From: Candidatus Latescibacterota bacterium
Lineage (GTDB): Bacteria > Latescibacterota > UBA2968 > UBA8231
Assembly: GCA_965197905.1 (NCBI GenBank)
Contig: CBDAOB010000004.1
Coordinates: 32,001 to 96,000 of the forward strand
DNA: 64,000 nt
Reading direction: 5' to 3'
A program made the position numbers and the translations under genes. Positions 1 to 27,487 of the stretch are shown here, one piece after another (positions within the stretch are counted from its first letter, which is position 1; each line of letters starts with the position of its first letter). Below the pieces are notes generated by a model, which did no database searches, was not told the origin of the DNA, and worked only from the letters and a program-made list of their open reading frames with translations.

Positions 1-1341
<1,341 letters not shown>

Positions 1342-1546
1342 GGTCTCTCCTCGTTTGTTGGCTGCGCCTTTCCACGGCGGTGATTTGACATCCGTCTCAA
1401 TTCTTTCGTTGGGTCTCACGCTGGGGCCAAGCCCCGGGCATAGCGGTTTTCTTTGTTGACGGGTCTATGGTTGATCGCCCGTCGGTAGCGTAGGACGGCT
1501 TGCCGTCCAGGACTTCACGAAGTAGGTAGCGCTGAAAACAGGTGAC

Positions 1547-1636
1547 ACGATATAATTTTATCGTTATATTTTAAACAATATCTACTTTATCTACTTTATC
1601 TACTTTCAACTACCATCCAAAAGATAATACGATATA
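1547..1636. promoter_or_regulatory. AT-rich divergent promoter region between the cas operon and the mini-array; contains the PAM and seed target of spacer 1
   Basis: Sharp AT-rich patch with the palindrome ACGATA-N6-TATCGT (1547-1564). The minus strand carries TTGAAA, TAAAAT and TTG-GATGGTAGTTG (1620-1607). Confidence 0.7.
1579..1605. repeat. 9-bp tandem repeat TATCTACTT x3
   Basis: Three perfect copies at 1579, 1588 and 1597. Confidence 0.95.
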
Positions 1637-1637
1637 T

Positions 1638-1818
1638 GTTTCCGATGCACAACACCTTTTCTCGGACCTCGTTGAAGCGATGGCAGTTGTCGTTTCCCGC
1701 ACGTAGTATGTGCATACTTTCCGGGGCCTCGTTGCCCCGGCCTCATTGAAGGCTGGGAGAAGACGCCGCCAAGGCAGTCACCCCGGCCCTCTTCCACGGG
1801 GCAGACATCCAGCGAAGC
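1638..1818 (+). CRISPR. Degenerate type I-G CRISPR mini-array (crRNA-like regulatory RNA candidate)
   Basis: Canonical-looking 36-nt repeat CTTTCCGGGGCCTCGTTGCCCCGGCCTCATTGAAGG (1717-1752) with a CCGGGGC/GCCCCGG stem. Divergent repeat GTTTCCGA...TCGGACCTCGTTGAAGC (1638-1678). 38-nt spacer at 1679-1716. Possible third remnant repeat CTTCCACGGGGC...GAAGC (about 1791-1818). Confidence 0.8.
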
Positions 1819-23306: not shown

Positions 23307-25921
23307 AGTCCAGCGAGATTAGAGAAAGCTTCCTGCGCTTTTTTGAGGAACGGGGTCATCAGCGGGTGCCAAGTGCTCCGGTCGTTCCCCACGATGACCC
23401 GACCCTCTACTTCACGAATGCCGGAATGAACCAGTTCAAGGACGTTTTCCTGGGAATGGGCAAACGCGACTACACGCGAGCGGTCGACTCGCAAAAGTGC
23501 ATTCGGGTCTCAGGGAAACACAACGATCTGGAAGAAGTAGGCGTGAGCCCGGGGCATCACACCTTCTTCGAGATGCTGGGCAACTGGTCCTTTGGAGACT
23601 ACTTCAAGAAGGAAGCAATCGAATGGGCATGGACCCTGGTCACGGAGCACTGGGGGCTGGAAAAGGAACGACTGTGGAGCACCGTCTTCGAGGGCGACGA
23701 GAGTGATGGCCTCGAACCCGACGAAGAGGCAGAGAATCTGTGGCTCGATATGACGGATCAGGTCCAGGAGCGGATCGTACGTCTGCCGGCTCAGGATGTC
23801 TTTTGGGAAATGGGTGCTACCGGGCCCTGCGGCCCTTCATCAGAGCTGCACTATTACCTGGGCGACGACCTCAGCAAACAGACGGCTGGCGGGCTTCGCG
23901 ACGCAGACAGCGGTTTCCTCGAGATCTGGAACCTGGTGTTCATCCAGTTCAACCGCGACGACCAGGGTCAACTGCATGCGCTCCCGGCCAAACACGTCGA
24001 TACCGGCCTGGGTTTCGAGCGGATCTGTCGAATCCTGCAAAAGGCTGAAACCAACTACGACACCGATATCTTCCAACCTCTCATCGCACGGGTCGCCGAT
24101 CTCACCGACAGCGCATACGAGGGTGAACACGTGGTGCCGATGCGGGTGATTGCCGACCACGTTCGCGCTCTTACGTTTGCCATCGCGGACGGCGCCTTGC
24201 CTGCCAACGATGGTGCCGGGTATGTCTTGCGGCGCATTCTGCGCCGGGCGGCGCGGTACGGACGCCAAATGAACCAACACGAACCGTTCATATTCAAGTT
24301 GACCTCGACCATCGCTGACCTGCTGGGGTCGGCCTATCCGGAGATCGTGGCAAAGAGTGCGCACATCTCGATGGTTATCGAGTCGGAGGAGGAGAGTTTC
24401 GGTAGGACCCTGGACCGGGGTCTGGACATCTTCGAGCGGCTGAGCCAAAAGAACGAAATCTCCGGTGCCGACGCGTTTCGCCTCTACGATACATTCGGTT
24501 TTCCACTGGATCTGACCGAGCTGATGGCTCGTGAACGCGGCTTAAACGTCGACGTCGACGGATTTCAGGTGGAGTTGGAGAAGCAACGCCAGCGTGCGCG
24601 GAAGGCGGGCCGCACGCAGTTTTCCGCCACCGAAGGTGTGGCTGACGTACTCGAAGCCGATCATTCCGACTTCGTTGGATACGAAGAGTTGGAAACCGAG
24701 AGCGAGGTCGTTTTCTCCGGATCCGGTGCCGAGGGCAACCTGCAGATTTTTCTGGACCGAACTCCGTTTTACGCGGAGTCGGGGGGCCAAGTGGGCGACC
24801 AGGGGGCTATTGAAGGTTCTGATTTTTCAGTTGAGGTCCTCGATACCGTCAGGGGCCGGGGCGGAATCATGCACGTCGGACGTCTCCTTTCCGGCGATGT
24901 GGCATCGATAAGAGGCTCTGTCAGGGCTCGCGTGGATGCCGGTAGGCGTTTGGACGGTGCTCGCCATCACACCTCAACGCATCTGCTGCACGAAGCTTTG
25001 CGCCGGATTCTCGGTACCCACGTCGCCCAGATGGGTTCGCTGGTCGCCCCAGATCGACTTCGATTCGACTTCTCCCACTTCAATCCGATCGACGCCGCGC
25101 AACTTGAAGAGATCGAATCTTTGGTCAACGCGGAGATTCGCGCCGACCGCGAGGTCTCTACTTTTGAGGAGGACCTTGAAAAGGCAAAATCGATGGGGGC
25201 CCAGGCCCTCTTTGGGGAAAAATACGCAGACCGGGTTCGCGTTGTTCGCATCGACGATTTCGGCCTTGAACTGTGCGGCGGGACCCACGTGAGAACTACA
25301 GGGGAGATCGGACGTTTCGACCTGATCTCCGAAAGGGGCATCGCGGCGGGTACTCGGCGCGCCGAGGCGCTGGCCGGGACGGCCGCCGAGAGCGCCGCCC
25401 GCCAGCAGCGGGAAACCTTGAGCCGGCTGGGGGCTATGTTAAACAGCCCAGAATACGGGCAGCTGCCGGGCAAGATCGATGACCTGCTGCAGCGCCAGCG
25501 CGACACGGAACGCCAGCTGAGCGAGCTGCAGCAGCAAGTAGCAGGGCAGCGGGGGGTGCAGCTGGCCGACAACGCGATTGAGGTCGACGGCATCAAGGTG
25601 GTCACCGGCCGTGTGGACAATACCGATGTTTCCAACCTGCGTTTGCTGGCTGATGGCTTGCGTCAGGAAATGGGCTCGGGGCTCGGGGTGATCGGCACCG
25701 CGCTGGAGGGCAAGGTGGCGCTGGTAGCGGTGGTAACCGAGGATCTGATCGCGGAGCAAGGATTGCGGGCAGGCGACATCGTCAAAGCCGTAGCACAGTG
25801 TGTGGGCGGCTCCGGCGGCGGCAAAGCCCACCTAGCCCAGGCCGGAGGAAAGTATGTGGAAAAGCTGGACGAGGCCTTGGCATCGGTTCCCGAAATCGTC
25901 CGTCAACATGTGCGCAAGTAA
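23303..25921 (+). CDS. alaS: Alanine--tRNA ligase
   Basis: FTNAGMNQFK, HHTFFEMLGNWSFGDYFK, TPFYAESGGQVGD, ELCGGTHV and GGSGGGK. Confidence 0.99.
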   Translation: MKSSEIRESFLRFFEERGHQRVPSAPVVPHDDPTLYFTNAGMNQFKDVFLGMGKRDYTRAVDSQKCIRVSGKHNDLEEVGVSPGHHTFFEMLGNWSFGDYFKKEAIEWAWTLVTEHWGLEKERLWSTVFEGDESDGLEPDEEAENLWLDMTDQVQERIVRLPAQDVFWEMGATGPCGPSSELHYYLGDDLSKQTAGGLRDADSGFLEIWNLVFIQFNRDDQGQLHALPAKHVDTGLGFERICRILQKAETNYDTDIFQPLIARVADLTDSAYEGEHVVPMRVIADHVRALTFAIADGALPANDGAGYVLRRILRRAARYGRQMNQHEPFIFKLTSTIADLLGSAYPEIVAKSAHISMVIESEEESFGRTLDRGLDIFERLSQKNEISGADAFRLYDTFGFPLDLTELMARERGLNVDVDGFQVELEKQRQRARKAGRTQFSATEGVADVLEADHSDFVGYEELETESEVVFSGSGAEGNLQIFLDRTPFYAESGGQVGDQGAIEGSDFSVEVLDTVRGRGGIMHVGRLLSGDVASIRGSVRARVDAGRRLDGARHHTSTHLLHEALRRILGTHVAQMGSLVAPDRLRFDFSHFNPIDAAQLEEIESLVNAEIRADREVSTFEEDLEKAKSMGAQALFGEKYADRVRVVRIDDFGLELCGGTHVRTTGEIGRFDLISERGIAAGTRRAEALAGTAAESAARQQRETLSRLGAMLNSPEYGQLPGKIDDLLQRQRDTERQLSELQQQVAGQRGVQLADNAIEVDGIKVVTGRVDNTDVSNLRLLADGLRQEMGSGLGVIGTALEGKVALVAVVTEDLIAEQGLRAGDIVKAVAQCVGGSGGGKAHLAQAGGKYVEKLDEALASVPEIVRQHVRK

Positions 25922-26667
25922 TGGCCCCTCCAAGCACGCTCAACTACCTTCTGGAGATCTGCAAACGGCGTGGGGCCGGCTATCTGACCCTCCTCGATCC
26001 CGATCGCCTGCCACCGGGTGAGTTGGAAGAAAGAGCCAAAGCGTGCGCCGATGCCGATGCCGATGCCATTCTGGTCGGAACGAGCCTTATGCTGTCGGAC
26101 CATTCCACCGTTTTCCAGCGCATAAAAGGAACGGTGGACATACCGGTCATCATTTTTCCGGGCAGCGTTGGCCAAATCGTTCCCACGGCGGACGCGATTC
26201 TGTTTCTGTCCCTCATCAGCGGTCGCAATCCTGAACTGCTCATAGGTCAGCACGTGAAAGCGGCCCCGTTGCTCAAGGAATATGGTGTAGAGGCGATTCC
26301 CACCGGCTACGTCCTGATCGAATCCGGAGTGTTCACCTCCGTTGAATTCATGAGCAATACCCGCCCGATCCCGCGTGCCAAAAACGATATCGCGATGGCT
26401 CACGCCCTGGCTGCCGAATACCTGGGTATGCGTTTGGTCTATCTAGAGGCTGGCAGTGGCGCCCGGGATCCGGTCCCTGACGAAATGATAGAAGCCGTCG
26501 TTAATTACGTGTCGTTGCCAGTCATGGTCGGCGGCGGGATTCGCGATCCCCAGACCGCCCGTACAAAGGTTGAAATGGGCGCCCGTTTCGTGGTAACTGG
26601 CACAGCCGTTGAAAACGACCCGGGCCGTTTGCGCGAATTGGGAGAGGCGGTGCATACCAATGGGTGA
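25921..26667 (+). CDS. Geranylgeranylglyceryl/heptaprenylglyceryl phosphate synthase
   Basis: LLDPD, FLSLISGRNPELLIG, YLEAGSGA and VGGGIR; ATG overlaps the alaS stop (TAATG). Confidence 0.92.
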   Translation: MAPPSTLNYLLEICKRRGAGYLTLLDPDRLPPGELEERAKACADADADAILVGTSLMLSDHSTVFQRIKGTVDIPVIIFPGSVGQIVPTADAILFLSLISGRNPELLIGQHVKAAPLLKEYGVEAIPTGYVLIESGVFTSVEFMSNTRPIPRAKNDIAMAHALAAEYLGMRLVYLEAGSGARDPVPDEMIEAVVNYVSLPVMVGGGIRDPQTARTKVEMGARFVVTGTAVENDPGRLRELGEAVHTNG

Positions 26668-27487
26668 AGCGAGGTCACGCGCGGACGCTCCCATGGTGGA
26701 TATCCACAGCCACGCCCTACCCGGAGTAGACGACGGGGCCACATCGATGGAACAGGCGTTGGCCATGTTGCGGGGAGCGTGGGATGACCGCATCGGCACA
26801 GTCGTGCTTACGCCCCATTTTCGGCCGGAGGACGGACCCGAGCAGGCTGCCCTGCACGAACAGCGATTCACCGAGTTGCGTACGGCGGTCAGCACCGCCG
26901 GGCTGCCGATCGAGATTCACCTCGGGGCGGAAATCGGGTTCCGCTTCAAAATGGCCGAGGCCGCAAGCTTGCCCGCCTGTCGTATCTCCTCAGCCGGGCG
27001 GTACGTGTTGGTTGACTTACCCCATGGACCGCTACCCACCGGCATCGAGCAGGGGTTCTTCGAGCTCCGGTTGGCAGGTGTAAAACCGATTTTAGCTCAC
27101 CCGGAACGCCATCGACAACTCTCGCGGGCACCGGAGTGGTACGATCGTCTGCGCGAGCAAGACCTGCTCTTCCAAGTGACAGCTGGAAGCATTACGGGCA
27201 GGTTTGGCTCGCGGGCCCAGCAGGCCTCCGAATATCTGTTAGACCGGGGATGGGCCGATCTCGCTGCCAGCGACGCCCACGATCTGGAACACCGCCCCTT
27301 TGGTCTGTCGGCGGCGCGGGAACGGGTCGAGGAGCTTTGGGGCGAAGAAGAGGGTGTGCGACTGTTCGAAACCAATCCCAACTGCGTCGTGCTTGGAGAG
27401 GAATTCGAGATGCAAGACTACATGCCCCAGCCGACTGAATCAACATCGTTTCTCCGCCGGCTCGTGGATGTCTTCACAGGCTCATAG
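26660..27487 (+). CDS. CpsB/CapC family PHP tyrosine-protein phosphatase
   Basis: DIHSHALPGVDDG, LTPH, ILAHPER and ASDAH. Confidence 0.9.
   Translation: MGEARSRADAPMVDIHSHALPGVDDGATSMEQALAMLRGAWDDRIGTVVLTPHFRPEDGPEQAALHEQRFTELRTAVSTAGLPIEIHLGAEIGFRFKMAEAASLPACRISSAGRYVLVDLPHGPLPTGIEQGFFELRLAGVKPILAHPERHRQLSRAPEWYDRLREQDLLFQVTAGSITGRFGSRAQQASEYLLDRGWADLAASDAHDLEHRPFGLSAARERVEELWGEEEGVRLFETNPNCVVLGEEFEMQDYMPQPTESTSFLRRLVDVFTGS

Follow-up and report, generated by a model that had tools for sequence, protein, structure and literature searches.

The single-spacer mini-array found upstream of csb1 in the window (the whole stretch of 64,000 nt analyzed here, G000:C4:32001-96000, from the genome of a Latescibacterota bacterium) is probably a crRNA-like, CreR-type repressor of its own operon, a type I-G operon with a nested III-B cassette, a reading to which we give a probability of roughly 0.78 on the basis of sequence comparisons. 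The anatomy of the element, its conservation and covariation in related loci, its PAM and its promoter geometry are established here. Together with the strand of the target, they support the proposal of the initial annotation that Cascade represses its own cas operon, and it is from them that we infer this function.

Anatomy of the Mini-Array

The mini-array is divergent from csb1. Its three parts, a first repeat of degenerate sequence (1638-1678), the spacer (1679-1716), and a second repeat that is near-canonical (1717-1752), were read directly from the sequence exactly where the initial annotation had placed a degenerate repeat, a 38-nt spacer and a second repeat. The features discussed below are the following:

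139..1341, minus strand: csb1 (cas7g), first gene of the cas string (TIGR02570, 70.6 bits vs. a cut-off of 38)
1342..1617, minus strand: predicted cas 5' leader, ~275 nt (alignment A1)
1542..1570, plus strand: predicted mini-array promoter (GTGACA, 17 nt, TATATT; predicted start ~1577)
1579..1606, no strand assigned: a 9-nt unit present three times in tandem, right behind seed position 11 (repeat family D7)
1607..1620, minus strand: target site, PAM TTG (1620-1618) and 11-nt seed match (1617-1607), from the sequence and its genome-wide uniqueness
1624..1652, minus strand: predicted cas promoter (-35 TTGTGC at 1652-1647, 17 nt, -10 TATTAT at 1629-1624)
1638..1678, plus strand: psiR1, degenerate first repeat, source of the guide's 5' handle, read directly from the sequence
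1679..1716, plus strand: spacer-like guide segment, 38 nt, with the seed at 1679-1689 and the 5' start GATGGCAGTTG
1717..1752, plus strand: R2, near-canonical second repeat, 36 nt, 3' hairpin for Csb2 binding

The start of the 41-nt psiR1 resembles the canonical repeat. It is followed by a weak 5-bp stem (TCCGA/TCGGA) closing a 16-nt loop, then by CCTC and by the 8-nt handle GTTGAAGC, the counterpart of which in the canonical main-array repeat is ATTGAAGC. As described for type I-G, Csb2 cuts 4 nt 3' of the hairpin base and leaves an 8-nt handle (PMC9638904); the psiR1 stem, the 4 nt CCTC and the 8-nt handle fit this rule, as the initial annotation had supposed. The main array, which contains 17 exact copies of a 36-nt repeat ending with ATTGAAGC (C4:12331-13732, opposite strand), lies ~20 kb from the mini-array, and its periods of 73-79 nt correspond to spacers of 37-43 nt. 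The initial annotation had suggested comparing the two: R2 differs from the main-array repeat at 4 of 36 positions, with two mismatches over a 31-nt core. Rfam recognized 1721-1751 (plus strand) as CRISPR-DR16 with 31.1 bits and an E-value of 5e-5, under the gathering score of 35, and returned no match to psiR1 and none in the cas leader. The psiR1 stem is present in the minimum-energy fold. However, the fold of 1630-1760 is not more stable than those of shuffled sequences (z of -1.19), so that our structural claims are limited to the repeat stems.

A search for sequencing runs matching the locus returned no RNA run, and contigs of four contig-only runs were compared with it. Those of run X1, which is probably the source sample, cover 1346-1850 with 0 differences; 1390-1666 is missing from one X1 contig, as could be expected if this sample also contained a relative.

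A small palindrome (GCAC...GTGC, 1697-1714) is found in the 3' half of the spacer, which does not pair. A GC palindrome is also common in this half of the spacer elsewhere (L025, L024, L032, L049, L036, and L035), in the form CGCG...CGCG or GCGCG...CGCGC, the stem varying while complementarity is kept; the Caldilineaceae copies of the mini-array are devoid of it. To the right of the mini-array, an 83-nt segment (copies 84% identical) followed by 35-nt and 21-nt repeats is found twice, 505 nt apart (1830-2022 and 2335-2473), and an ORF with its start near 2734 is preceded by an 18-nt inverted repeat (2502-2543, 89% complementarity, gap of 6 nt).

The Target Site

On the minus strand, 1620-1607 reads TTG then GATGGTAGTTG. 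Spacer positions 1-5 and 7-11 match and position 6 does not, which confirms the seed match, its mismatch and its TTG PAM as initially annotated. Past position 11, only position 16 matches among positions 12-17. In a scan of the intergenic region with the seed, this site was the best match (10/10), the runner-up scoring 7. Searched on both strands, the 6,689,607-base genome contains TTN-GATGG-N-AGTTG a single time, at the target site, and the reversed control pattern not at all. For 12 fixed bases, ~0.8 occurrences are expected genome-wide and the odds within the 297-nt intergenic region are roughly 4e-5, in agreement with the 1e-4 or less that had been estimated in the initial annotation. On a stricter score over 15 positions (1-5, 7-11, and 13-17), the window reaches 11/15, as do a few non-cognate spacer/target pairs. 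Because 2 of 300 shuffled spacers also reach this score, the window's match taken alone is good but not overwhelming. Two further 11-12-nt inverted matches to the spacer (I5 and I6) lie within 1.3 kb, neither of them noted as PAM-flanked.

The tandem 9-mers, 28 nt in all, lie where the guides of relatives pair through positions 13-17. In the closest relative, G017 (Csb1 82% identical), pairing continues at positions 14-17, and in the window a TTGTTT located 28 nt further on (1576-1571) would restore a G017-like pairing. We infer, and only infer because the AT-rich alignment is ambiguous, that the 9-mers are a 28-nt insertion into an ancestral 17-nt target.

Conservation of the Mini-Array and Its Target Upstream of csb1

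We surveyed one genome per species with Csb1, which gave 80 loci with 61-85% identity (81 counting the window) from Latescibacterota, Binatia, Caldilineaceae, Nitrospirales, Acidobacteriota, several proteobacterial groups, and others. Single-spacer mini-arrays were searched upstream of csb1 as a handle followed by a GC hairpin; a second scan, for TTG in the handle position and a TTN-flanked match of at least 12 over the 15 positions, added L049, L050, L078, and L081. A mini-array with a TTN-flanked target on the csb1 sense strand was found in 20 of the 81 loci, including the window. Thus, 19 other csb1 loci have, upstream of csb1, a TTN-flanked site matching the spacer 5' end, and the match is kept in homologous loci; the initial annotation would have taken its absence there as an argument against regulation. 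One of the 20, L036, was counted on the basis of a TTT PAM that appears only after a 3-nt register shift. In addition, L061 has a lone repeat, L035 a mini-array 1.5 kb away for which the target was not found, and no mini-array was found upstream of csb1 in G022, whose Csb1 is 54% identical. The 20 loci represent about 12 seed groups and are therefore not 20 independent cases.

All 20 mini-arrays with a target belong to the 45 loci in which csb1 appears to head the operon. In the 36 others, an ORF of 200 aa or more on the same strand ends at most 200 nt upstream of csb1, and no mini-array was found. Among the 29 of these 36 ORFs that were scanned, 19 encode Cas3-extension proteins, so csb1 is internal in those 19 loci; this suggests that the usual order is cas3g, extension, csb1, csb2. 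The gap between the Cas3-extension gene and csb1 is ~30-56 nt (L052-L055, L059, L060, L067, L072-L074, L077, L080, and L086-L090; ~1300-2470 in each).

The mini-array is divergent from csb1 in 18 loci and co-oriented in two (L078 and L081), and the target is always on the csb1 sense strand. This constancy of the target strand, whatever the orientation of the mini-array, suggests that the csb1 promoter is the object of control. In the two co-oriented loci, the mini-array lies between the target and the csb1 start, in the direction of csb1 (L081, 2250-2480; L078, 2290-2500). Judging from this layout, their regulatory RNA would be excised at the 5' end of the very cas transcript that it controls.

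Pairing Pattern and Covariation

Without any PAM rule, both strands between csb1 and the mini-array were scanned for the site that best matches the spacer at positions 1-5 and 7-11. In 14 of the 16 loci, this site was sense relative to csb1 and flanked by TTN, although the PAM had not been imposed. The exceptions are L036 and L058; in the latter, a tie ranked another site first, and the TTC-flanked site was found in other scans. The positions were then tallied by hand from the printed patterns of 19 loci, L036 being left out:

Positions 1-5, 7-11, and 13-17: 263 of 285 cells match (19 loci)
Positions 6 and 12: 8 of 38 cells match (19 loci)
Position 18: 1 of 14 cells match
Positions 19-24: 8 of 84 cells match

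Usually, therefore, the guide pairs in three blocks, 1-5, 7-11, and 13-17, is mismatched at positions 6, 12, and 18, and hardly pairs further on. The rarity of matches at positions 6 and 12 bears out the initial claim that position 6 is free. In type I-G, as described in PMC9638904, the PAM is TTN and the sixth base is flipped out and unpaired; the 5+1 pattern is the periodicity described there for the I-G Cas7 backbone. Positions 13-17 played no part in the selection or scoring of 14 loci (13 picked by repeat structure and L042 by the seed scan, all scored on positions 1-11 only), and 63 of their 70 cells match. The window has 1/5 matches at these positions versus 4-5/5 in each of the other 13 loci. 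Hence, the initial description of a pairing that stops at 11 holds for the window, whereas its relatives usually pair to position 17.

Over the 15 positions, cognate spacer/target pairs score 13-15 in 14 of 16 loci, the remaining two being the window and L036 (8, in the unshifted register). Non-cognate scores of at least 12 are seen only between evidently related loci (window/L025/L024, L032/L084, L037/L058, L040/L063, and L044/L064), all others being 11 or less. The observed score was reached by none of 300 shuffled spacers in 13 loci, by 1/300 in L024, and by 201/300 in L036. The initial annotation had proposed to look for spacer/target covariation in related loci. Seeds do differ between loci and their changes are concordant with those of the targets, as seen in L040/L063 (position 9), L044/L064 (positions 10-13), and L032/L049 (positions 2, 9, and 16).

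Predicted Promoters and Leader of the cas Operon

The predicted cas start (~1617) is the first base of the target, with only ctt between the -10 box and the PAM, and the -35 box sits inside the degenerate repeat. This layout is common to the window, G017 (TTGCGC-17-TATATT-cta-PAM), and L024. The initial annotation considered that a cas start far from the seed match would speak against it; the start predicted from the consensus falls at the target. More generally, 16 of the 20 loci have a sigma-70-like promoter whose end falls between -2 and 16 nt ahead of the PAM, versus 0.53 expected from the density of promoter-like matches in the same sequences, the rule (TTGnnn, 16-18 nt, TAnnnT) being a consensus match only, applied to loci from several phyla. 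Canonical examples, seen in the 60 nt preceding the PAM, are L044 (TTGACA-17-TAAGAT-agg-PAM) and L050 (TTGACA-17-TATTAT-caagc-PAM). No such layout was found before the PAM in the four others (L036, L038, L078, and L081).

On the other strand, the predicted mini-array promoter has a perfect counterpart in G017 (TTGACA-17-TATAAT), and in both loci the predicted mini-array transcript starts ~30-45 nt before the target and runs through it. The possibility, also raised in the initial annotation, that the mini-array represses itself fits this geometry. However, a mini-array promoter is recognizable in only 4 of the 17 divergent loci, and we therefore argue for self-repression solely in the window and G017.

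Most of the cas leader is common to the window and L024 and deleted in G017 (alignment A1). We considered and rejected a 150-nt insertion in the window leader, because the segment is shared with L024 and missing from G017. Two strong small hairpins can be seen by eye in the part of the leader (1390-1545) that is shared with L024 and absent from G017: GGACGG-CAAG-CCGTCC near 1494-1509 and GGGGC-ttg-GCCCC near 1421-1433.

The cas Operon and Its Nested III-B Cassette

The type I-G signature proteins score above their cut-offs: Cas7g/Csb1, 70.6 bits; Csb2, 290.7 bits; Cas3g, 600.9 bits; and Cas4g-Cas1g, 776.7 bits. Behind csb1, the same strand encodes, in this order, Csb2 (787 aa), a TM1812-family protein, Cmr1, an N-terminal piece of Cmr2, Cmr3, Cmr4, Cmr6, Cas3g, a Cas3-extension protein, an AAA/PD-(D/E)XK protein, and Cas4g-Cas1g, followed by the array. 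A III-B cassette (TM1812-like CARF protein and cmr1-6) is thus seen nested between csb1-csb2 and cas3g (G000:C4:14245-33341; L110 1-16000). The nested arrangement is on one strand, tightly packed, and in the same order in the window's genome and in G017. In the window's genome, cas3g is split in two frames and cmr2 is in two separated fragments (G000:C4:18709-21656 and 25746-27032), which may reflect either gene decay or assembly indels, whereas G017 has an intact 713-aa Cmr2, Cmr5, and a 982-aa Cas3g. Cas8g/Csx17 (TIGR04113) was not found in the 91%-complete genome, but this model matched none of 14 control genomes either; the Cas3-extension protein may be a stand-in for the large subunit.

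If these genes form one transcription unit, the occupancy of I-G Cascade by ordinary crRNAs or anti-CRISPRs could gate the III-B cassette, and the targets could state a design rule for a Cas8g-less I-G variant, a proposal drawn from gene order and pairing patterns that we put forward tentatively and regard as somewhat less probable than its negation. It would be a case of cross-type supervision by a crRNA-like RNA, and the design rule would combine a TTN PAM with pairing in three blocks of 5 nt and with selection against matches past position 18.

Proposed Mechanism and Alternative Explanations

In the mechanism that we propose, the mini-array would be transcribed rightward from the promoter near 1542-1570, and Csb2 would cut 4 nt after the stem in each repeat to release an RNA made of the handle GTTGAAGC, the 38-nt guide, and the R2 hairpin, which would then load into type I-G Cascade. 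Cascade would recognize the TTG PAM and pair with the plus strand over guide positions 1-5 and 7-11, position 6 being flipped out as in all type I Cascades. Because this pairing would be too short to license Cas3, the complex would stay bound without cutting; because the target lies 3 nt downstream of the predicted -10 box, at the start point, it would block RNA polymerase and lower the transcription of csb1-csb2 and of the genes behind. In the window's genome and in G017, the bound complex would also stand in the path of the mini-array's own transcript. By the logic of published CreR work, repression would ease when the crRNA load rises, since ordinary crRNAs would compete for the same proteins, or when Cascade is inactivated.

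A first question is whether the window's copy still works. The element family could be a real regulator of which this copy is weakened or dead, which we regard as improbable, though well within reason: the window falls far short of 13 other loci at positions 13-17, its pairing past 11 is displaced by the tandem 9-mers with the TTGTTT left 28 nt further on, and its cas3g and cmr2 appear broken while both are intact in G017. Yet its PAM, handle, and R2 are preserved, as are all ten seed positions under constraint, and the frame breaks may stem from faulty assembly, the genome being metagenome-assembled. CreA of type I-B is functional with about 11 nt of pairing. Mutants of a single seed nucleotide (5th or 10th) of the CreA target are among those used to test repression in the CreR preprint (10.1101/2023.03.10.532045). 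Given the apparent breaks in cas3g and cmr2, the circuit may be weaker in the window's genome than in its relatives. That the match is fortuitous, next to the functionless remnant of a decayed array, is far harder to sustain. The other inverted spacer matches within 1.3 kb and the shuffled spacers that equal the window's 15-position score would allow it, but the full PAM and seed pattern is unique in the genome, and the comparative data contradict it: in relatives belonging to several phyla, the element is conserved, spacer and target covary, and both the strand and the promoter geometry are fixed, and their seeds are not identical, so that they are not copies of one recently transferred element. 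We consider its probability to be close to negligible.

The other alternative concerns what is repressed. As in a CreTA-type addiction module, the repressed promoter could drive a small toxic RNA or peptide located in the 275-nt leader, which is long, structured, and shared with L024; a six-codon ORF can be seen by eye from 1616, in the seed, and a 14-codon ORF further down, and CreA and CreR are, according to the CreR preprint, the same kind of RNA (10.1101/2023.03.10.532045). We saw, however, neither a Shine-Dalgarno-led ORF with rare codons nor any candidate with a ribosome-binding site in 1342-1617. Furthermore, G017 is without most of the leader, and the distance from the PAM to the csb1 start is only 104 nt in G017 and 48 nt in L050, which leaves no room for a separate toxin gene in these relatives although both have kept the mini-array and its target. 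A toxin module thus appears very improbable, and autorepression of the cas operon is the reading that we retain.

Relation to Known Systems

Self-repression of cas genes by crRNA-like RNAs has been reported for type I-F. The CreR preprint demonstrates autorepression experimentally in types I-B, I-E, and V-A, and lists creA-like elements obtained by manual search for I-D, I-C, I-E, I-F, and I-U (Liu et al., 10.1101/2023.03.10.532045). Since I-U is the old name of I-G, elements of this subtype had been mentioned in this preprint, without experiment. In the literature searched, we found no experimentally tested case of type I-G crRNA-like autorepression, and two later crlRNA preprints mention neither I-G nor I-U. 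The initial statement that no I-G example had been characterized thus stands as far as experiments are concerned, but the existence of such elements had already been pointed out. The present locus and its relatives provide natural I-G examples from several phyla, and because their seeds differ while the PAM and the position relative to the promoter start are consistent, the circuit is directly testable with a reporter. The set also constitutes an evolutionary read-out of the guide positions used for binding without cutting (1-5, 7-11, and 13-17, pairing being avoided further on), which is useful for the design of I-G transcriptional repressors. In addition, with a III-B cassette nested downstream of this promoter, one may ask whether one CRISPR type tunes another.

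The resemblance to CreR is close. As in CreR, the element is a degenerate two-repeat mini-CRISPR whose first repeat keeps the handle and the second the hairpin. At its 5' end, the spacer shows partial complementarity to a chromosomal site that bears the subtype PAM (TTG) and by prediction adjoins the effector promoter, 3 nt after the -10 box; the pairing is kept across related loci, with covariation, and no adjacent toxin is evident. The differences lie first in the subtype, here I-G, with a Csb2 that is a Cas5-Cas6 fusion and no Cas8g found (by a model silent in controls). In the Salmonella I-E system, as given for CreR, 15 consecutive nt are shared with an AAG-flanked site ~140 bp upstream of casA, whereas pairing here is made of three 5-nt blocks with free sixth positions and the target coincides with the predicted transcription start, directly behind the -10 box, the -35 box of the clade lying inside the first repeat. 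Finally, the gene string under control would here include a III-B cassette as well.

The element likewise resembles CreA of the CreTA module of Haloarcula hispanica (type I-B) and related modules, described as a crRNA-like guide with divergent repeats by which Cascade represses a promoter through seed pairing and without cleavage (PMC8501985, PMC9458426), but no toxin gene is evident here and the target of relatives is too close to csb1 to leave space for one. It belongs to the same class as the standalone repeats and mini-arrays inside cas loci cataloged by Shmakov et al. (PMC10120712), who report a mini-array in 4% of 235 I-G loci and whose passage on the I-G table gives no detailed I-G case; the frequency in the present Csb1 clade is far higher (20 of 45 loci with csb1 at the operon head). 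The tracr-L RNA of Streptococcus pyogenes (10.1101/2020.05.21.102756) offers a parallel outside class 1: a natural guide of limited complementarity also leads the effector to repress its own promoter, but this effector, Cas9, is a class 2 single protein and the guide derives from the tracrRNA, with no mini-array, whereas the guide considered here would come from a mini-array and act through a type I-G Cascade.
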